A stretch of 51,479 bases of DNA from Patescibacteria group bacterium (GCA_028868715.1 JAGWUB010000001.1:1-51479), one strand, 5' to 3'. Positions 1 to 38,150 are shown, counted from the stretch's first letter. The notes: generated by a model from the letters alone, not told the origin. Translations and numbers: made by a program.

Positions 1-1236
<1,236 letters not shown>

Positions 1237-10286: not shown

Positions 10287-11234
10287 TTAAACAAAAAGAG
10301 TGTTGATTTCGTATTTATCAATATTTTTTTTATAATAATCTATCGTATTTTTTAAACCTTCCTCGAAAGAGACCATATTGTCTTTTTTCCAGTCCAAAAG
10401 TTCTAGATTCCAAGTTGATTCATCGGTTTTTACTTTACTATCTGGAATCTCTCCTCTTCTCATTGGTTTATTGATAATTTTTGATTTTGATCCTGTCATT
10501 TCAATTATTTTTTTTGCTACACCTATTACAGTAAGGTCTTCACAAAGACCAGCTTCAAATATTTTAGTATAATTACCGTGATCATTGAGTAATGCTCGTA
10601 CTAAAATTTCAGCAATATCGTCTACATAAATCCAGTCCATGACCTGCTCTCCGTTACCATAGACAATTATGTCTTCGTTTTTTAACGCATTAATAATGAA
10701 ATTAGGCATCATCTTACGAACAGGTGCATTTTTTTGTCCAGGACCAAATACATTCATGCCACGCACTATGGCAATTTTAGCGTCAGATTCTTTATTCATC
10801 ATTAATGCAAAACGCTCAGCGGTAGTTTTTGTAATTGAATATGGATTGTTCATCCAATGATTTCCAACGGCAATATAAACTGCCTTTCTTTTAAATTGCC
10901 TGACAGCATTAAAAACATTAATGGAACCTAAAACATTCACTTCTGCTACTGGTCCGGGATTATCTATGGTTTCTTGGGTGCCAAGCATTGCAGCTAAATG
11001 AATAACTCCTTCGTTGTGTTGCACTGCTTCTAAAACTGCAGTAGCGTCACGAACATCACCATAAAAAACATTGACTGCTCCATTGCCTGCAGGAAATTGT
11101 TGAGTTCCTTCTTTGGGATTTCTATCTAATATAGTAACTTGAATGCCTTTAGAAACGAGATTACGCGCTACGGCCATGCCTATAAAACCAGCACCTCCAG
11201 TTACAAGAACTTTTGTTATATTGTTTTTTTGCAT
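10287..11234 (-). CDS. NAD-dependent nucleotide-sugar epimerase/dehydratase (extended SDR)
   Basis: It has the Rossmann motif VLVTGGAGFIGMAV and catalytic YSITK (YxxxK). Substrate is not assignable from sequence alone. Confidence 0.85.
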   Translation of the reverse strand: MQKNNITKVLVTGGAGFIGMAVARNLVSKGIQVTILDRNPKEGTQQFPAGNGAVNVFYGDVRDATAVLEAVQHNEGVIHLAAMLGTQETIDNPGPVAEVNVLGSINVFNAVRQFKRKAVYIAVGNHWMNNPYSITKTTAERFALMMNKESDAKIAIVRGMNVFGPGQKNAPVRKMMPNFIINALKNEDIIVYGNGEQVMDWIYVDDIAEILVRALLNDHGNYTKIFEAGLCEDLTVIGVAKKIIEMTGSKSKIINKPMRRGEIPDSKVKTDESTWNLELLDWKKDNMVSFEEGLKNTIDYYKKNIDKYEINTLFV

Positions 11235-29483: not shown

Positions 29484-31424
29484 CTATTGAGCCACCACAC
29501 CACCAGAAGCTGGAAAGGCACTGTCGTCTTTTAGATCGGTACGCAAAGGTGGCTTACTGACTCTCACGTCTACATTAGCAAAATCATCATGTCCGGTCAA
29601 AACGGCATCGTTGATAATAATTGGAACGGTGTTGGCTTGAGAAATCAACGGAGTATAGCCAATCTGGAAAGATACTGTTCTTTCAGCTCCGGTAATGCCT
29701 GCTCCTTTTGGAATTCTACTAACATTCCAAACTACTTCTCTACTAGCAGAATTATAAACCACGTCTTCATTGATGGGAGAAATAGGTCCCATAAAACGTA
29801 CCCAAGTCGGTAGAACAGCGCGCATTTCCGCTTTGGAAATGCTATTGGATGTATTTGAGAGAGACCAGACTATTGTGTAAGTTGTCTCTTTTTCAACTTT
29901 TGGAGGTATTAAACCAGTGTTGGTAAATGGACCTGAATAATAAAGTGCCTTGGCGGTGAGCCCTACATCGGAAATAATTTTAACTACTTTAGAATCAGAG
30001 TTATTTAATTCCTGAGGCTGATAACCTGACACCAGCTGGTTGCCAGTAATAGCAACGTCTATATTAACGGATGGATTGGATATGATTCCATCTGTAGTAG
30101 AAAAAAGTGCAATTGGAGAGATAGAAAAATTAACAGAACCAAAGTCACCAGGGTTAATTTCTGAGAATTGACTCTGTGAAAATTTATCCCAAACGATTGT
30201 ATTTGTAAGTGAATCATAGTTACCTTGTTCAGCCGTTACTGTATTTTTGTTATAGGCATTTCCTGAAATAGTCGCTTGAATTTTTAAATCATCCACTTTG
30301 GTGTCCAAATTATTACTCCAATTAATCGTGCCTTGAATTGGCGTTTTGGAATCTACAGCATATTCACCTTGTGATACCCCATTGATTGAGAGATTAGCCT
30401 CAATGAATGGTTTCTTTACCATTACGGCATGCGTTAAAGTGTTTAAAACAACGCCTATGGCAGATTGATCGGTGCCGGATTGCGATCCGCTAGATACTCG
30501 AAAATCTTTTTCTTCTCCTTCAATGACGTTTAACATTTTGCCGGTTATGGAAATATTGCGATCCACTCCGGGAGCGAGATCACCCATACTCCAAACATTG
30601 TTACCAGTCGATGGCGGAGGCACAGCGGAGGTAAATTCAAATCCGGGCGGATAATCAACCTTCAGCAACACATTGGGTATAGATTTGGTAGCATTTAGGG
30701 TGGACTTAACGTTGAGGGTAATATTTTGATTTGGGCTTATGGTAACCGGCGCATCAACTGATAGATTTACTGGCGTAGAACTTATGGTAACTTGATAAGG
30801 TTTTTCTTTTACGAAAATTGCGTTAGAGCCAGCGACTCGATACTCAATGGAAACCTTTATGGGACGCACTGATCCCTGTTCACCAAAGAGAACCAGTTTT
30901 ACATTTTCATTCCGCACTGCTCCCGCGGGAATACTTCCTAACGATTCCCGAAAGTGCTCCGTGTTGGCAGCTAGGCTAGCATCTCCGCCCTTTGGATATT
31001 CCACTACTAAATCTACTAAGTCTAATGGAGAATTATTTCTGTTGGTAATACCTATAACCAGAGATAGATCATCTCCGCCGGCAACAAAAGTATTTCCAAG
31101 TATGGAGATATCAATATTGTTATTGGAAACAGTGTTACCAGCAAAAAAGAACACATAGGAAGCATAGCCTATGGTTAAAACAAAAAATGCTACTGAAAAA
31201 ATAAAAAATTTCTTGAATCTAGAAGTTTTCATAAAAAATTTTTCTTGATAATTTAAACCGTCAGACTCAGGCTTTTTGGCATCACCCCACGAATCCGGCA
31301 CATTGGCCTTACTGGGGTGCAAAAAACTATCTCGGTACTCAATTTTTGTCTGATAGTTCTTGCTAAAGAGCTTGGTTTTCAATTCCTCTATTCTATTTAA
31401 TTTATTCCTGTCATTTAAAGGCAT
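29484..31424 (-). CDS. Large membrane-anchored protein with repetitive beta-rich (Ig/CARDB-like) extracytoplasmic region, function unknown
   Basis: A ~70-aa cytoplasmic N-terminus and one TM helix (FFIFSVAFFVLTIGYASYVFFF) are followed by ~550 aa rich in N/S/T/V/G with repeated beta-strand patterning. Confidence 0.7.
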   Translation of the reverse strand: MPLNDRNKLNRIEELKTKLFSKNYQTKIEYRDSFLHPSKANVPDSWGDAKKPESDGLNYQEKFFMKTSRFKKFFIFSVAFFVLTIGYASYVFFFAGNTVSNNNIDISILGNTFVAGGDDLSLVIGITNRNNSPLDLVDLVVEYPKGGDASLAANTEHFRESLGSIPAGAVRNENVKLVLFGEQGSVRPIKVSIEYRVAGSNAIFVKEKPYQVTISSTPVNLSVDAPVTISPNQNITLNVKSTLNATKSIPNVLLKVDYPPGFEFTSAVPPPSTGNNVWSMGDLAPGVDRNISITGKMLNVIEGEEKDFRVSSGSQSGTDQSAIGVVLNTLTHAVMVKKPFIEANLSINGVSQGEYAVDSKTPIQGTINWSNNLDTKVDDLKIQATISGNAYNKNTVTAEQGNYDSLTNTIVWDKFSQSQFSEINPGDFGSVNFSISPIALFSTTDGIISNPSVNIDVAITGNQLVSGYQPQELNNSDSKVVKIISDVGLTAKALYYSGPFTNTGLIPPKVEKETTYTIVWSLSNTSNSISKAEMRAVLPTWVRFMGPISPINEDVVYNSASREVVWNVSRIPKGAGITGAERTVSFQIGYTPLISQANTVPIIINDAVLTGHDDFANVDVRVSKPPLRTDLKDDSAFPASGGVVAQ

Positions 31425-32053: not shown

Positions 32054-35000
32054 CTATATTTTATCAATTTTTACCTTAAACACCAATTCATCTATTTTTA
32101 TTTCTTGCCCAGCATTTTCTGCAAATTCTATTTTAGATACAAGTACGGTCTTTTTCATGTCCGGCTCAAATTTTTGAATCAATTTCTTGCCAACTTTACT
32201 GGTTTCAAAAGTCAGCACGACGACATCGCTCGGCGTCAGCCCTTCTTTTTTTCTCATGTCTTGTAAGCCACGCACGAGCTCACGATAATCCCCCTCTTGT
32301 TTTAAATCTTCAGTAATTTCTGTATCGAGAGTTACTTTAGTTATTCCTACTTTTATTTTCAATAGGAAAATAACATTTTTTATATTTAATTCATTCTTTA
32401 TAATTTCAATATATTGACCAGACAATCCTTCGGCCACTACCCACAGGTGATTGAGTGGCTGACGTACTTTTATGCCTGCCTTCTGACGAGCTTCGAGGCC
32501 AAGGGTAACAATATTTCTAACTGTCTCCATCTTTTCCAAAACTTTTGGCCTGCCAAAAGAAAAAAGTCTGAAGGGTTTTTTAGGCCACTTGGCAAGGTGG
32601 ACACTTTCTGGATCAGTGTCATTTTTTAATTTCAACCAAATGTCTTCTGCTGTAAAAGGCGCAAAGGGAGCCATAAGTTCTGCTAGAGTTTTTAATACAA
32701 AATGTAGAGTTTGTTTGGCTTCCTTATCTCCATCTTTAATTCGTTCGCGGGAACGACGTAAATACCAAGTGGATAAATCTCCGGTAAAATCCCTCATGGC
32801 CCTGACGGGCTCAAGGAGTTTATAGTGATCCATTTTTTTTGTAGATTCAGTAATTAAATCATCCAATCTCGCCATGATCCATTGATCGAGAATATTTTTT
32901 GATTTTGGTCGTTCTGATTTTTCTAAGCTTTTATCTCTATATAGTTCGTAAAAGGCTAGCACATTGTAAAGTAAACCGAAAACTTGTTGTTGAAGTAAAG
33001 CTACTGTCTTTTCATCAAAATTTTTAGACTCACCAGGTTGGTTCACTGCATACATCCACAGACGCAAAGTGTCCACGCCGTATTTATCCATCATTACCCA
33101 TGGATCAATGATATTACCTTGCGACTTGGACATTTTTTTACCTTTAGCATCTAGTAAGTGTCCCAAGCAAATTACATTTTTATAAGCCAGACCACGTCCC
33201 ATCAATGCTCCGACAGCGTGCAGAGTATAAAACCAGCCACGAGTCTGATCTATGGCTTCCGAGATAAAATCTGCCGGATATCCGTCCCCATCCACCCATT
33301 CTTTGTTTTCAAATGGATAGTGATCTTGCGCAAACGGCATTGCTCCAGAATCAAACCAGACATCCATGACCTCGCGAGTTCGCACTAAATCGCCACCACA
33401 GGCCTGCTCCGCCACCTTGTTGTCACAAACAAGTGTAGTCTCATCTATGTATGGACGGTGTAGATCTAATTCATAATCTGGATTATGTGGGGTAGGCACA
33501 AACGGAAGTTCGCGTACTTCGGAATTTTTAAAAGATTTAAAATCATAAACAAAAACTTCAGAGTTTTGAACTTGATATGGTTTGTTGTCTGGAACATGCA
33601 GGCCAGAATTCACAAACAAAAGCCAAGCAGGGCCACCGTGAGTTACAATTAAAATATTTTTGTCTTTGTATTTATTTTCCAACTCATACAAAACTGCCCC
33701 TGTGCGACGTGCCACATCTTGCAATGACTCTCCATTTGGAATTTTGTGATTAAACCATTCATCTCCAAACCCAAGAACATAATTATGATATTCATTCCAA
33801 GGCTTCCCGTCAAAATCGCCGACATTTAATTCCTGCAAACGTTCGTCAAAAATAACTTGTTCTTCACTTAAATTAAATTTTTCTTTTAAAATTTTAGTGG
33901 TTTCTCTGGTGCGAGTAAATGGCGAGGCGATGATAAGGTCAATTTTTTTATCTATAATTTCTGTTCCGACTTTAGCTACTTGTTCTTTGCCATGTTCAGT
34001 CAGCCTATCTTCGATTTGTTCTTTGAAGCTTACAACGCCATTGTGGTTGGCTTCGGTTCCACCATGTCGCATGACAAAATATTTGTTACCAGATTTTTTG
34101 GTTTTATTTTTTAATTCCGCAATGCTTCCGATTACGTCAATTTTTTTACAAGCTACACATTGCCATACAGGTAACGGTGTCCCCCAATATCGCTCACGAG
34201 ATATTGCCCAGTCCTTTATTTCTCGGAGCCACTCACCAAAACGTCCGTCGCGTATATGGCTTGGCTCCCAATTTATTTTTTCATTTTCGGAAATCAATTG
34301 CGATTTTATTTTTGGATCTGACATCCGGATATACCAAGAGTCTCGCGCATAGTATATGAGTGCCGTATGACAACGCCAACAATGTGGATATGAGTGCTTA
34401 TAGTTTTCTTGTTTAAAAAATAAATTTCTCTTTTTGAGATCATCGATAATATCTACGGCTAAAGTGGGTTTGCCATTTTGGTCAGCTTCTCTGACAAATC
34501 TTCCTTCTAAAAATCCGGTATTTTTTACAAATTTACCTTCGGGATCTACGAGGTGGTATTTCGGTAAACCAACTTTTGTTCCCAGCACGAAGTCATCTTG
34601 ACCATACATCACCGCCGTGTGGACGATACCAGTTCCATCGGTCGTATTTACAAAATCAGCCTCATATACCATGTAGGCTTTGTCCATTTTCTTTTTCTCG
34701 GGATCGGTTATATTGTCTGCTATAAATGGATACAGTGGTTCGTATTGCATACCAACCATTTCACTGCCCTTGTGCTCAGCGACAATTTTATAAGGCTCTT
34801 CAATAATAGCAAGGCCATCCTTGGCTAGTACCAAAATTTCATTACCGACTTTTATCTCTATATAATCAATATCTTTCCCCACCGCCAGAGCCACATTCCC
34901 CGGCAAGGTCCACGGAGTTGTCGTCCACGCCAAGAAATATCCATTTTCAACCCCTACTATTTTAAATTTTACATAAATCGATAAATCTTTTATCTCTTCA

Positions 35001-35599
35001 TATCCTTGAGCCAGCTCGTGCGAAGACAATGCCGTGCCACATCTCGGACACCAAGGCACAACTTTATAATCTTTATAAAGTAAATTTTGTTCTTCTACTT
35101 TTTTTACAATATTCCAAACAGATTCTATGTATTCGTTGTCATAGGTAATATAAGGATTTTTTTCATCCACCCAGTAGCCAGACCTTTCAGTAAATTTATC
35201 CCAGAGGTCAACATATTCCCATACGGATTCTTTACATTCTTGATTAAACTTGGCAATGCCATACTCCTCAATAGCTTTTTTGGAATTGAGTCCAAGTTTT
35301 TTTTCTACTTGAAGCTCCACTGGCAATCCATGAGTATCCCATCCACCCTTGCGACGGACGTGGAAACCTTGCATGGTTTTATATCGTGGAATTGCATCTT
35401 TGAAGGCTCGCGATTCTAGATGGTGAATCCCCGGCTTACCATTGGCGGTCGGTGGACCTTCGTAAAAAACAAATTCTCCTTTCGGTGCCGGTTTTTTCAA
35501 AGATTTTTCAAAAATCTTTTCTTTCTTCCAAAATTCTAAAACTTTCTCTTCGCGAAGAGCTGTCTCAGATTTATTATTATTTTTTTCTTCCTTTTCCAT
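32054..35599 (-). CDS. ileS: Isoleucine--tRNA ligase with an inserted histidine-phosphatase (PGAM-like) domain
   Basis: It has the HIGH region (PPTANGKPGIHHLESR), the editing-domain WTTTPWTLPGN, KMSKS (KKMSKSQGN) and WFDSGAMPF. The ORF track begins at GTG 35677 inside the T-box element, so the true start is taken as ATG 35599 (MEKEEKNNNK). The insert is described in the findings. Confidence 0.95.
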   Translation of the reverse strand: MEKEEKNNNKSETALREEKVLEFWKKEKIFEKSLKKPAPKGEFVFYEGPPTANGKPGIHHLESRAFKDAIPRYKTMQGFHVRRKGGWDTHGLPVELQVEKKLGLNSKKAIEEYGIAKFNQECKESVWEYVDLWDKFTERSGYWVDEKNPYITYDNEYIESVWNIVKKVEEQNLLYKDYKVVPWCPRCGTALSSHELAQGYEEIKDLSIYVKFKIVGVENGYFLAWTTTPWTLPGNVALAVGKDIDYIEIKVGNEILVLAKDGLAIIEEPYKIVAEHKGSEMVGMQYEPLYPFIADNITDPEKKKMDKAYMVYEADFVNTTDGTGIVHTAVMYGQDDFVLGTKVGLPKYHLVDPEGKFVKNTGFLEGRFVREADQNGKPTLAVDIIDDLKKRNLFFKQENYKHSYPHCWRCHTALIYYARDSWYIRMSDPKIKSQLISENEKINWEPSHIRDGRFGEWLREIKDWAISRERYWGTPLPVWQCVACKKIDVIGSIAELKNKTKKSGNKYFVMRHGGTEANHNGVVSFKEQIEDRLTEHGKEQVAKVGTEIIDKKIDLIIASPFTRTRETTKILKEKFNLSEEQVIFDERLQELNVGDFDGKPWNEYHNYVLGFGDEWFNHKIPNGESLQDVARRTGAVLYELENKYKDKNILIVTHGGPAWLLFVNSGLHVPDNKPYQVQNSEVFVYDFKSFKNSEVRELPFVPTPHNPDYELDLHRPYIDETTLVCDNKVAEQACGGDLVRTREVMDVWFDSGAMPFAQDHYPFENKEWVDGDGYPADFISEAIDQTRGWFYTLHAVGALMGRGLAYKNVICLGHLLDAKGKKMSKSQGNIIDPWVMMDKYGVDTLRLWMYAVNQPGESKNFDEKTVALLQQQVFGLLYNVLAFYELYRDKSLEKSERPKSKNILDQWIMARLDDLITESTKKMDHYKLLEPVRAMRDFTGDLSTWYLRRSRERIKDGDKEAKQTLHFVLKTLAELMAPFAPFTAEDIWLKLKNDTDPESVHLAKWPKKPFRLFSFGRPKVLEKMETVRNIVTLGLEARQKAGIKVRQPLNHLWVVAEGLSGQYIEIIKNELNIKNVIFLLKIKVGITKVTLDTEITEDLKQEGDYRELVRGLQDMRKKEGLTPSDVVVLTFETSKVGKKLIQKFEPDMKKTVLVSKIEFAENAGQEIKIDELVFKVKIDKI

Positions 35600-35603
35600 A
35601 TGT

Positions 35604-35800
35604 AAAATAAAAAAACTCGTCCACGTACAACAATCAAAAATTGTTATACAAGGACGAGCTTCTACTCGTGGTACCACCTTGTTTTACCGCCAATTTGACG
35701 GACTCATTACTGCTATAACGGGCTTACCCGTCGGGTTCTACTTAGTTTCCTCCCGAAGCTACGGAGTGATGACTCCTTCATCGCTTGTAACTAAACTATA
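35604..35800 (-). promoter_or_regulatory. T-box riboswitch leader of ileS (Ile specifier AUC candidate)
   Basis: Minus strand shows 'agcgatgaagg' (a Stem I start, 35778-35785) and 'ggtggtaccacgag' (the T-box sequence, 35665-35678). Immediately after comes the terminator ctcgtcc...ggacgag (35616-35658) plus a U-run, about 5 nt before the ileS ATG. The candidate specifier 'atc a' is at 35770-35767 in 'ggagtcatcactcc'. Confidence 0.72.
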
Positions 35801-35814
35801 CCACATACTAAAAT

Positions 35815-35988
35815 AAAAGGAAAACAAGGCATCTTTCGATTGCCTTGTCGCGCTTGGTGCGCTTGGTGTAGATATGTGCCGAATTTTCGGCTATAAACGG
35901 TGGATCGTGACAGGGTAGTACTTTAGGCGGATTGCTCGTCTATTTCGAGCCGTCATTTGTTCCCTTGTAACCCCTTGCAAAAAACTCT
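35815..35988 (-). ncRNA. Orphan structured RNA candidate 2 (~175 nt), family unknown
   Basis: It lies behind a 36-nt conserved element plus TATAAT (35995-36000). It ends in caaggca/tgccttg (35825-35847) plus a U-rich tract. Internal helices are gctcg/cgagc (35934-35950) and gccgaa/ttcggc (35878-35891), with a tandem 'ccaagcgc' x2. No ORF is present. Confidence 0.35.
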
Positions 35989-36006
35989 ATTTTTATTATA
36001 GACCCG

Positions 36007-36042
36007 TAAAACAAATAAACTATTGAATAGTGTGTATAACTT
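36007..36042 (-). repeat. 36-nt conserved upstream element, copy 2
   Basis: Minus strand reads aagttatacaca-ctattc-aatagtttatttgtttta, identical to copy 1 at 33/36 positions. TATAAT follows 6 nt downstream. Confidence 0.85.
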
Positions 36043-36054
36043 TTTATATGGAAA

Positions 36055-36320
36055 TAAAAAAACAGGCGCTTTTAAGGTACGCCTGTATTGTAGATTCACA
36101 GCATCTACGGACCCGCTGGGGTATGTTTGAGCCCAGCATAAGATAATTGGATCACCCCCTTCAGCGATAGGCCGCCGAGCAAAACATAGGTCTCCATTGT
36201 CTCAGTCGACGTAAGTAGTTTCTGCGTCTCCGTGGATCGAATCTAGGCCCATTTTTTGATCTCATTTAGGTGTATGCTCCTTTTGGTTTAGATTTGTGAC
36301 ACTTGGGTACATCTTTATCC
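36055..36320 (-). ncRNA. Orphan structured RNA candidate 1 (~265 nt), family unknown
   Basis: It lies behind a 36-nt conserved element plus TATAAT (36327-36332). It ends in acaggcg/cgcctgt (36062-36086) plus a run of 7 U. The GC-enriched core has helices gctggg/cccagc (36115-36137) and gtagat/atctac (36090-36108). Only a 34-codon ORF is present. Confidence 0.35.
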
Positions 36321-36339
36321 CAACCAATTATAAAATTAA

Positions 36340-36375
36340 TAAAACAAATAAACTATTACATAATGTGTATAACTT
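36340..36375 (-). repeat. 36-nt conserved upstream element, copy 1
   Basis: Minus strand reads aagttatacaca-ttatgt-aatagtttatttgtttta. TATAAT follows 7 nt downstream. Confidence 0.85.
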
Positions 36376-36434
36376 TCAAGACTAGCTATAACATTTCAGC
36401 CATGACTGAAATAGTAATTATTGCAACATAAAAC

Positions 36435-38150
36435 TTACATTTTTGATGGGACTTGGATGCCGAGGAGGTGGAGGCCAGTTTTCATCACAAAAGTAAATGC
36501 GTAAGTTAACGCTATTTTGTAAGATGAGTTTTTATCTTCTTTAGATACGATAACTGTGTTTCCATAAAAGCTGTTGTAGGCACGAGCGACTTCTATCAAA
36601 TAGTTTGCTATATAGTGTGGCTCGTATTCTGAAGCTGATCGCGATACTACCTCTCTAAATTGGTATAGCAATTTTTCAACTTCAAAAGTTTCAAAGGGAA
36701 ACGTGTGTGGATCAGGTAAAATATTTTCCTTTTGAGCTTTTTCTAAAACTGAATTGGCACGAGCATAAGCATATTGTAAATATGGACCAGAGTCTCCCTC
36801 AAAGGAAATGGATTTTTCAAAATCATACATAATGTCTCCACCAGTTGATTGCTTTAATATCGAATATTTAAGAGCTGCCACACCGACAATTTCCGAAACC
36901 ATATTTTTTTCTTCCTTGCTCCATTCTCTGTCTTTTATTTTTTCTTCCACCAGAGCTATCGTATCGCGAACCAAAGACTCGCCAGTCACTACATTCCCCT
37001 TGCGTGAAGACATCTTGCCTGTGGCTAGGCGCATCATGCCATGAGTAATGTGTTTCATTTTTGATTCGTAGTCTGGATGAATTATGGAAAGTGCTTTTGA
37101 TACTACTCTCATATAGTCCATCTGCTCGTTGGCGGTGATAACTATACAGAGACTCATATCTGACAGAACAGTAAATTTTTCTTCGGTAAGCCCGAGTTCT
37201 TTTGTCTCGTAAGTAGGTAAACCCTTTGAAGTCATAAATACTCTGGTGTGTAGTTTCGGATCGTATTTTTCAGCTTTAAATACAATTGCCCCGTCTGATT
37301 CTTCGAAAACTTTACCCATGTTATCTCGCACGGCTTCTTGCCCGAGAATCGCCACTTTGCTTTCTAGAAAATAAAATTCAAATTTTGTTCCAAGTATTTT
37401 GTAAAGATCTTCAAAAGCTTTCATCGTCACCTCGAAGCCCCAATCATATATTTCGTTTATTTTTTCATCGCTTTTGTCGTAAATTTTCTTATTTATCTCA
37501 TCAATTTCATTTTTTGCCGTAGGGTCATTTTCATAAGCTGAAGCGCCTTGGGTATAAGCTTTGCCGATATTTGCCGATTGCATATTGTGAGAGCCAGATT
37601 TTTCTTGAAGTTTTTCATCTTTAAGTAAACCATAAATAGCTTTAGCCACATGAAGACCGATATCGCCTTGATAATTAGCTCGAGAGACAATAGCTCCAGA
37701 GTGTTCTAAGATTCTAGCAATGGATTCACCAATGGCGTTGGTCATCAAGTGCCCAATGTGAAAAGGTTTAAAAGGATTTGGGTCAGTATACTCCACCATT
37801 ATTTTTTTACTTGCGAGAGAGTCGTTTTTACCGACATCATATCCTTGATTTAAAATTTCTTCGACACTGCTACTAAAAAATTCTCTAGATAAATAAAAAT
37901 TTATAAATCCAGAGCCAGCCACTTCCACTCTTTCAATGTTTTTATCCAAAACTAATCTCAATATTTCGGTAACTATTTTATCTGCTACTTCTCGTGGACC
38001 TATTCCTAAGCTCTTGGCTACAACCATGGCCACATTCGTGGAATAATCCCCCATCTTTAAGTCTGCTGGGTGCTCCAAGCTAATATCGCTAACCTCAATA
38101 TCTAGATTTTCTAGCGCATCTTTTATTAAATTTTTTATTTCTTTTTCCAT
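36435..38150 (-). CDS. argS: Arginine--tRNA ligase
   Basis: It has the HIGH region (PNPFKPFHIGHL), a KMSSRKG-type loop (TGKMSSRKGNVV) and a DALR-type C-terminal anticodon-binding domain. The ORF track starts at 38189, overlapping dut. The ATG at 38150 (MEKEIKNL) is preferred. Confidence 0.95.
   Translation of the reverse strand: MEKEIKNLIKDALENLDIEVSDISLEHPADLKMGDYSTNVAMVVAKSLGIGPREVADKIVTEILRLVLDKNIERVEVAGSGFINFYLSREFFSSSVEEILNQGYDVGKNDSLASKKIMVEYTDPNPFKPFHIGHLMTNAIGESIARILEHSGAIVSRANYQGDIGLHVAKAIYGLLKDEKLQEKSGSHNMQSANIGKAYTQGASAYENDPTAKNEIDEINKKIYDKSDEKINEIYDWGFEVTMKAFEDLYKILGTKFEFYFLESKVAILGQEAVRDNMGKVFEESDGAIVFKAEKYDPKLHTRVFMTSKGLPTYETKELGLTEEKFTVLSDMSLCIVITANEQMDYMRVVSKALSIIHPDYESKMKHITHGMMRLATGKMSSRKGNVVTGESLVRDTIALVEEKIKDREWSKEEKNMVSEIVGVAALKYSILKQSTGGDIMYDFEKSISFEGDSGPYLQYAYARANSVLEKAQKENILPDPHTFPFETFEVEKLLYQFREVVSRSASEYEPHYIANYLIEVARAYNSFYGNTVIVSKEDKNSSYKIALTYAFTFVMKTGLHLLGIQVPSKM

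Follow-up and report, generated by a model that had tools for sequence, protein, structure and literature searches.

A conserved element upstream of ileS heads two units that may be moron-like accessory mini-gene cassettes in a Patescibacteria bacterium

Introduction

CPR bacteria (Patescibacteria) have tiny genomes, and to our knowledge their promoter rules are uncharacterised, almost no promoter or regulator having been defined by experiment. The locus described here raises the question of what occupies an 835-nt gap between two tRNA synthetase genes, argS and ileS, in such a genome. The gap lies in a window of 51,479 nt from a Patescibacteria group bacterium (GCA_028868715.1 JAGWUB010000001.1:1-51479), by which we mean the whole stretch of DNA that was analysed; coordinates are counted along the window, and the features of the argS-ileS region named below, as well as the 23S rRNA fragment, lie on its minus strand. 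A preliminary description had read the gap as two small RNAs, each starting behind a copy of the same upstream element. We ask what the two units are, and what the element that they share does.

Results

The gap extends from the stop codon of argS at 36435 (arginyl-tRNA synthetase, 571 aa; 36435-38150), the upstream neighbour, to the ATG of ileS at 35599 (1,181 aa; 32054-35599), which lies downstream and anchors the locus considered here. The argS translation is identical to P0001, and its relatives are annotated as arginine-tRNA ligase of Nomurabacteria or Paceibacterota; hundreds of ArgS relatives so named, at 60-82% identity, indicate an affinity of the source with Candidatus Nomurabacteria / Paceibacterota (CPR). 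The stretch was found only in four DNA runs of one soil sample, with identical bases throughout, zero indels and no strain variation, and since four independent assemblies yield the same sequence an assembly slip is excluded. Housekeeping genes lie on both sides (RecO, a class II tRNA synthetase, dUTPase, nucleotide kinases, SHMT, SOD and ComEC), and a Pfam search of nine neighbouring genes and ileS returned no integrase, recombinase or phage gene within ~7 kb on either side. At the edge of the window (1-1230) lies the 5' 1.2 kb of a 23S rRNA gene, with no 16S rRNA or tRNA gene in the 50 kb upstream, so that the rRNA genes appear to be unlinked.

Among relatives, the distance between the argS stop and the core of the ileS T-box ranges from 116 nt to 7.1 kb, being 116-170 nt in some of them, and this variability marks the two units as additions to the spacer. 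The contigs of the closest ArgS relatives end before ileS. The spacers of the closest relatives (L001, 7663-13000; L004, 11807-15941; L201 and L202) hold a PIF1-type helicase, a Cas2/PaaX-like protein of 130 aa, a membrane protein and a secreted protein of 900-1,100 aa, the middle part of which we judged by eye to be esterase/lipase-like; the window has none of these proteins. The longest ORF in the gap, which had been described as free of ORFs of at least 60 codons, has 48 codons and spans a terminator and a promoter.

The part of the gap next to ileS is the ileS leader (35647-35800), which begins with a putative -10 box TATAGT (35800-35795, with TG upstream) and contains a T-box riboswitch (RF00230, 75.2 bits, E = 2.8e-16), as had been proposed. 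The covariance match, at 35647-35790, stays below the Rfam gathering score of 93, as 6 nt stand in place of 76 model positions of stem I. The T-box has a very short, ultrashort-type stem I and a hairpin loop UCAUCA that presents the Ile codon AUC, and it is combined with a terminator, an inverted repeat at 35613-35661 followed by a T-run. By BLASTN against related loci, this T-box is the sole part of the gap that is conserved in relatives. In the synthetase itself, residues 508-688 (33536-34078) include an inserted histidine-phosphatase domain (PF00300 His_Phos_1, 117.6 bits) with an RHG motif, which interrupts the protein in its middle and is also visible in the IleS of L004.

The remaining gap contains two units, each headed by one copy of a direct repeat. 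The copies, at 36340-36376 and 36007-36043, are 37 nt long, lie 333 nt apart and are identical at 34 of 37 positions (92%); the duplicated element had been given as 36 nt with 33 identities, and in this slightly longer form it is borne out, with a TATAAT 6-7 nt behind each copy. No other repeat family occurs in the gap, and the 51-kb window has two copies against none expected from shuffles. Copy 1 carries the core AAGTTATACAC at 36375-36365, followed by a T-rich spacer (HMM E = 4e-5), and copy 2 carries the same core at 36042-36032 (HMM E = 7e-8) together with an AT-rich palindrome, ACTATT-C-AATAGT, whose hairpin amounts to merely -0.9 kcal/mol. The -10 boxes TATAAT lie at 36327-36332 for unit 1 and at 35995-36000 for unit 2, at offsets of 43 and 42 nt from the core, respectively. 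No -35 hexamer of the sigma-70 type is recognisable: the hexamers at that position, TAGTTT and ATAGTT, are unlike TTGACA, as anticipated from a reading of these regions as poor, while the -10 boxes are perfect. The poor -35 makes it plausible that something needs to be bound upstream, and transcription would start just after each -10 box. A degenerate extra copy of the core, AAATGTTATAGC, is present at 36380-36391, just upstream of element copy 1; it directly follows a hairpin, ATTTCAG/CTGAAAT, which lies behind the argS stop and has no T-run.

Unit 1 (36056-36320) would give a transcript of ~265 nt with 47% GC, as judged from its -10 box and terminator, and unit 2 (35815-35988) one of ~173 nt with 48% GC. 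The interiors had been noted as GC-richer than their surroundings, and at 47-48% they clearly exceed the window (36.6%) and argS and ileS (37-39%). The intrinsic terminator of unit 1 (36056-36086) consists of ACAGGCG / CGCCTGT, with arms at 36086-36080 and 36068-36062 and a loop of 11 nt, followed by seven T; that of unit 2 (35811-35847) reads CAAGGCA(A)TC-GAAA-GATGCCTTG, with a stem at 35847-35825 closed by a GAAA loop, followed by a T-rich tract. Both were missed by a simple scan, that of unit 1 because its loop exceeds the 8-nt limit of the scan, and both are drawn by RNAfold, in line with the GC stem plus U-run previously ascribed to the end of each unit.

The element, but not the unit bodies, recurs among relatives. 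GTDB genomes supplied 80 argS-anchored loci and metagenomes 73 ileS-anchored ones; with three contigs and the window this gave 157 sequences and 2.4 Mb, which we searched with a regular expression and then with an HMM made from its matches. The HMM returned 14 copies, 12 of them distinct, in nine of the 157 sequences: one copy each in L002, L003, L029 and L245, two each in L004, L014, L059 and the window, and a sequence (L250) that duplicates L014. Thus seven other related genomes (eight sequences) carry the element, at the same locus in each. All copies share the strand of ileS and precede its start by 358-1,612 nt; a locus often has two, separated by 320-520 nt. Each copy has the invariant 11-nt core AAGTTATRCMC. 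On the two strands together (4.8 Mb of sequence) this core occurs 16 times, 14 of them within copies of the element. A -10-like hexamer follows the core at 41-43 nt in all 12 distinct copies, as TATAAT (seven), TATACT (two), TATAGT (one) or TATGAT (one). Both window copies have this core and offset, lie on the ileS strand and are less than 1.7 kb upstream of ileS. Within the family, these two copies diverge most (HMM E = 6e-6 and 8e-3). Since an invariant core stands at a fixed phase to a -10 that lacks a -35, the core looks like an activator site or an UP-like element, to which a factor would bind.

Between the core and the -10 lies a T-rich tract, to which a GC hairpin of -5.5 to -9.5 kcal/mol is added in five of the 12 copies; the hairpin is absent or weak in the other seven, including the window copies (-0.3 and -0.9 kcal/mol). 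A reading of the element hairpin as a terminator would fit just those five and neither window copy, and was rejected; as the hairpin is essentially gone in the window, the element is not simply a terminator. Readings of the core as a dif/Xer site, a sigma-54 promoter or an NrdR box were also dropped, all fitting poorly by eye.

Further scans outside the comparison set yielded no convincing copies: the window-type element had no exact match in the GTDB genomes scanned, pattern scans of IMG/VR gave random or coding matches that were not scored by the element HMM, and BLAST against phage and plasmid collections gave only chance AT-rich matches. An AT-rich phage contig from IMG/VR (L128, 7160-7265) has AAAGTTATACACC ... 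AATAGTTTATTT ... TATAAT upstream of a gene for an HNH homing endonuclease; this string resembles the window-type element, was not scored by the HMM and may be due to chance. Across the 157 sequences the motif scan has placed 14 copies, two of them in the window, all upstream of ileS, and the earlier suggestion of a shared element tied to transcription holds in the conserved locus and the fixed spacing to the -10. These results support the view that the element is functional, and neither a chance repeat nor a dispersed one.

What follows the element in relatives is informative for the nature of the units. In every other species, a purine- or G-rich ribosome-binding site lies 20-70 nt behind the element, with a canonical SD core in ~12 of 15 cases, and one to three small ORFs and a terminator come next. 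The predicted products are Cys-rich proteins of 55-82 aa, an HNH-like protein and an Arg-rich peptide, most of the cargo proteins being Cys-rich with CxxC pairs. Against Pfam and PHROGs they gave nothing besides a weak HNH match. Several cargo families extend across species and are detectable at the protein level only: L004 orf2 and L245 orf1 (38% identity, E = 2e-12), L014a and L059a (44%, E = 4e-11), L003 and L059c (49%, E = 2e-14), and L004 orf3 and L014b (27%), while an HNH-like protein of 131 aa is shared by L002 and L001 (58%). The L029 cargo is a 60-aa Arg-rich orphan, and neither it nor the L014b cargo protein had relatives in word-index searches. As judged from their sequences, the cassette cargo of the relatives is shown to be protein-coding.

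The relatives' cassettes have 42-56% GC against 34-44% for the loci in which they lie, and their ORFs carry SDs of the AGGAGG type, whereas only four of 45 native long ORFs in the window, and zero to two per locus elsewhere, have an SD. In several native window genes (e.g. those starting at 31424, 41102, 45966 and 46003) just 6-8 nt separate a TATAAT-like box from the ATG downstream of it, a spacing that suggests widespread leaderless mRNAs. In L003 the cassette ORF that is homologous to L059c (11023-11230) has no stop ahead of its intrinsic terminator and continues into the ileS leader, so that this gene may be either decaying or the source of a non-stop transcript.

In the window, the cargo of unit 1 includes a 34-codon Arg-rich ORF, MRSKNGPRFDPRRRRNYLRRLRQWRPMFCSAAYR, which starts at an ATG (36265), ends with a stop at 36161 and is preceded at 11 nt, a long spacing, by a putative SD, AAGGAG (36282-36277; the whole feature spans 36161-36282). 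Shuffled sequence yields an SD-preceded ATG ORF of 34 codons or more in 4.3% of cases, and in 25% if no SD is required. A second ORF of 30 codons, METYVLLGGLSLKGVIQLSYAGLKHTPAGP (36105-36197), overlaps it in another frame and ends ~20 nt ahead of the terminator; the two ORFs could be one frameshifted gene of ~55 codons. Unit 2 has a 21-codon ORF, MTARNRRAIRLKYYPVTIHRL (35891-35956), preceded by AAGGGG and AAGGGA and without a canonical SD core, of a length reached in 11.5% of shuffles; after its TAG the frame stays open through the terminator. As far as its reading frames tell, unit 1 most likely either encodes the 34-aa Arg-rich micro-protein or is the frameshifted gene, and unit 2, which keeps just the 21-codon ORF, may be a decaying cassette. 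We put translation of the unit 1 cargo as a micro-protein a little below an even chance, and that of unit 2 lower. The shortness of the window ORFs, whose lengths chance often yields in GC-rich DNA, and the occurrence of ORFs in several frames in GC-rich cassettes speak against a reading of the units as protein cassettes.

Comparisons of these cargos with others returned no relatives. A phmmer search of 1.84 billion representatives with the 34-aa peptide gave only low-complexity Arg-rich matches and no true homologue, and tblastn with the 34-aa and 21-aa peptides against 80, then 157, related loci gave none. Smith-Waterman comparison of the unit cargos with all cassette cargos, assessed with shuffles, found nothing significant at the protein or the DNA level. 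An 8-residue match, LS[L/V]KGVIQ, between the 30-codon ORF of unit 1 and the L029 cassette ORF is non-significant once corrected for multiple tests (p ~0.012 over 18 tests; E = 0.11; DNA p = 0.05), and a YY...KIR resemblance of unit 2 to L003/L059c is likewise unproven and non-significant by the same procedure.

The units could instead encode no protein and be two different small RNAs, under common control of the shared element and acting in trans by base pairing or protein binding, with incidental ORFs. Their clean promoter-terminator architecture and sRNA-like sizes (~265 and 173 nt) agree with this, as do ORF lengths within the reach of chance, the lack of a canonical SD in unit 2 and its drawing as a row of small hairpins; moreover, the L003 ORF that runs past its terminator without a stop implies that not every cargo is a tidy gene. 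In Rfam 15, however, no family was found in either unit at the gathering threshold or at E <= 10, the T-box and the 23S rRNA being the only matches in the window; the best match inside the units, ncr982 (19.7 bits, E = 5.6), covers a terminator alone. This covariance search bears out the preliminary description, in which no known RNA class could be recognised. ARAGORN found neither a tRNA nor a tmRNA. Without their terminators, the folding energies of the units equal those of dinucleotide shuffles (z = +0.46 for unit 1 and -1.09 for unit 2; unit 2 with its terminator has z = -3.2), so that the several local helices once seen in the interiors, small hairpins of which are indeed drawn for unit 2, are a chance product of composition.

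The unit bodies have no homologue in the 157 related loci (2.4 Mb) by BLASTN, nhmmer, tblastx or Smith-Waterman with shuffles, and the comparison with related CPR genomes that had been proposed at the outset thus found conservation in the upstream element and not in the bodies. A search for antisense targets in the 51-kb window found no complementarity longer than 12 nt, and in all other species the same promoter module heads SD-led protein genes. Of the proposal of two small RNAs, therefore, the two separate promoter-terminator units stand, as read from the sequence, and a structured RNA cargo finds no support, given Rfam, the folding results and the protein cargos of relatives. Nor do the results favour a new RNA class. 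We regard it as unlikely that the cargos are genuine noncoding sRNAs, if less so for unit 2, and co-regulated trans-acting RNAs with incidental ORFs are doubtful to the same degree.

A different possibility is that the units are non-functional relics of small-protein cassettes, broken by a frameshift in unit 1 and by an in-frame stop in unit 2, and that the promoter modules persist because decay is recent or through homogenisation by gene conversion. The two frames of unit 1 together cover the transcript to ~20 nt before the terminator, the frame of unit 2 is open past the TAG right through the terminator, and the module hairpin is degraded in the window copies. The window elements are also closer to each other (92%) than to any other copy, a likeness which suggests local copying. 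The ancestral ORFs, however, are not revealed by any intact homologue, the similarities to L029, L003 and L059 being non-significant, and the terminators and -10 boxes of both units are perfect, which is not what one would expect of abandoned DNA when the genome is small and streamlined. Decay of the cargos is accordingly an outcome to which we give limited weight, and wholly non-functional units with persisting promoter modules seem rather unlikely.

It is very improbable that the element is primarily a recombination site (attC- or att-like) for capture or exchange of cassettes at the ileS leader, with a secondary promoter role: unrelated cargos do stand behind one element at one fixed locus, homology between species begins or ends at the element, and the hairpin of five of the 12 copies has arms that differ in sequence, but there is no integrase or recombinase within ~7 kb on either side and no R''/R' inverted core pair, seven copies have no hairpin, homologous recombination through a shared promoter would give an equal mosaic pattern, and the fixed distance of 41-43 nt from the core to the -10 points to transcription and against a capture role.

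Discussion

The results of this study allow us to propose what the two units are and how they might be expressed. We propose that some Nomurabacteria have a family of cassettes directly before the T-box leader of ileS and that each cassette would have three parts: a promoter module, made of an A-tract and the core AAGTTATRCMC at about -53 to -43, a T-rich spacer that would carry a hairpin in some species, and a -10 without a -35; a short, GC-rich, SD-led cargo; and an intrinsic terminator of its own. The 37-nt repeat of the window would be this promoter module. The core would most likely serve as a docking site for an activator or for the alpha subunit of RNA polymerase, docking would make up for the absent -35, and both units would switch on together. 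The cargos would be fast-evolving orphans.

Membership of both units in this lineage-specific, ileS-proximal family is highly probable. That they are two moron-like accessory mini-gene cassettes, or the decaying remains of such cassettes, under a lineage-specific promoter module is, in our judgement, an evenly balanced proposition. The locus would be an instance of an autonomous accessory cassette rather than of a new RNA class. We give little credence to a more far-reaching version, in which the locus would represent an undescribed CPR cassette system with a dedicated factor that activates and exchanges hypervariable mini-genes or sRNAs, or in which the two orphan transcripts would define a new class of co-regulated CPR sRNAs; if true, the cassette system would be a chromosomal, integrase-less analogue of an integron or a moron array.

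For the study of transcription control in CPR bacteria, a promoter module that is conserved and tied to one locus is a concrete starting point, and it heads SD-led, GC-rich micro-genes of fast turnover in genomes whose native genes seldom have an SD. The cassettes would show how reduced genomes gain and lose accessory micro-proteins. The locus also calls for caution, as GC-rich, terminator-bounded gaps in AT-rich genomes can be something other than structured RNAs. The cassette family and its promoter core are unmatched in Rfam, Pfam, PHROGs and the phage and plasmid collections searched, and a literature search found no description of a comparable locus.

Several known systems share part of this arrangement. 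Stand-alone bacterial sRNA genes, with a promoter, 100-300 nt of transcript and an intrinsic terminator, are like the units in size, architecture and intergenic location. They differ in that the units have no conservation, excess structure, Rfam family or identified target, and in that the unit promoter heads protein genes in relatives. Integron cassettes are likewise tandem, small and unrelated in cargo at one locus, with a conserved element of ~50 nt that is able to carry a hairpin. Here, in contrast, the element is 5' of the cargo and contains the putative promoter, the cassettes have terminators of their own, the hairpin occurs in only some of the copies, and no tyrosine recombinase (IntI) is adjacent. 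Of the attC cores RYYYAAC ... GTTRRRY, the element has one GTTAT(A/G)C half, on the 5' side, with no complementary partner. An integron-like capture role of the element is therefore unlikely.

For the promoter module itself, the closest likeness is to promoters that do without a -35 by relying on an UP element or, around -50, on a class I activator site, with which it shares a good -10, A/T-rich upstream sequence and an 11-nt core at a fixed distance. The core is unlike the E. coli UP-element consensus. For the cassettes as a whole it is to phage morons, which are defined by their own promoter, their own terminator and a deviant GC content (PMC3594210). Like morons, the units have, by sequence, a predicted -10 promoter and a factor-independent terminator of their own, a GC content ~10 points above that of the flanks, a small and variable cargo, and the character of extra DNA relative to related genomes. 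They differ from morons in their location, between the chromosomal core genes argS and ileS and outside a prophage, with no phage genes nearby, so that we use 'moron' as an analogy only. A further difference is that the cassettes described here all have one conserved promoter module in common, at one fixed locus.
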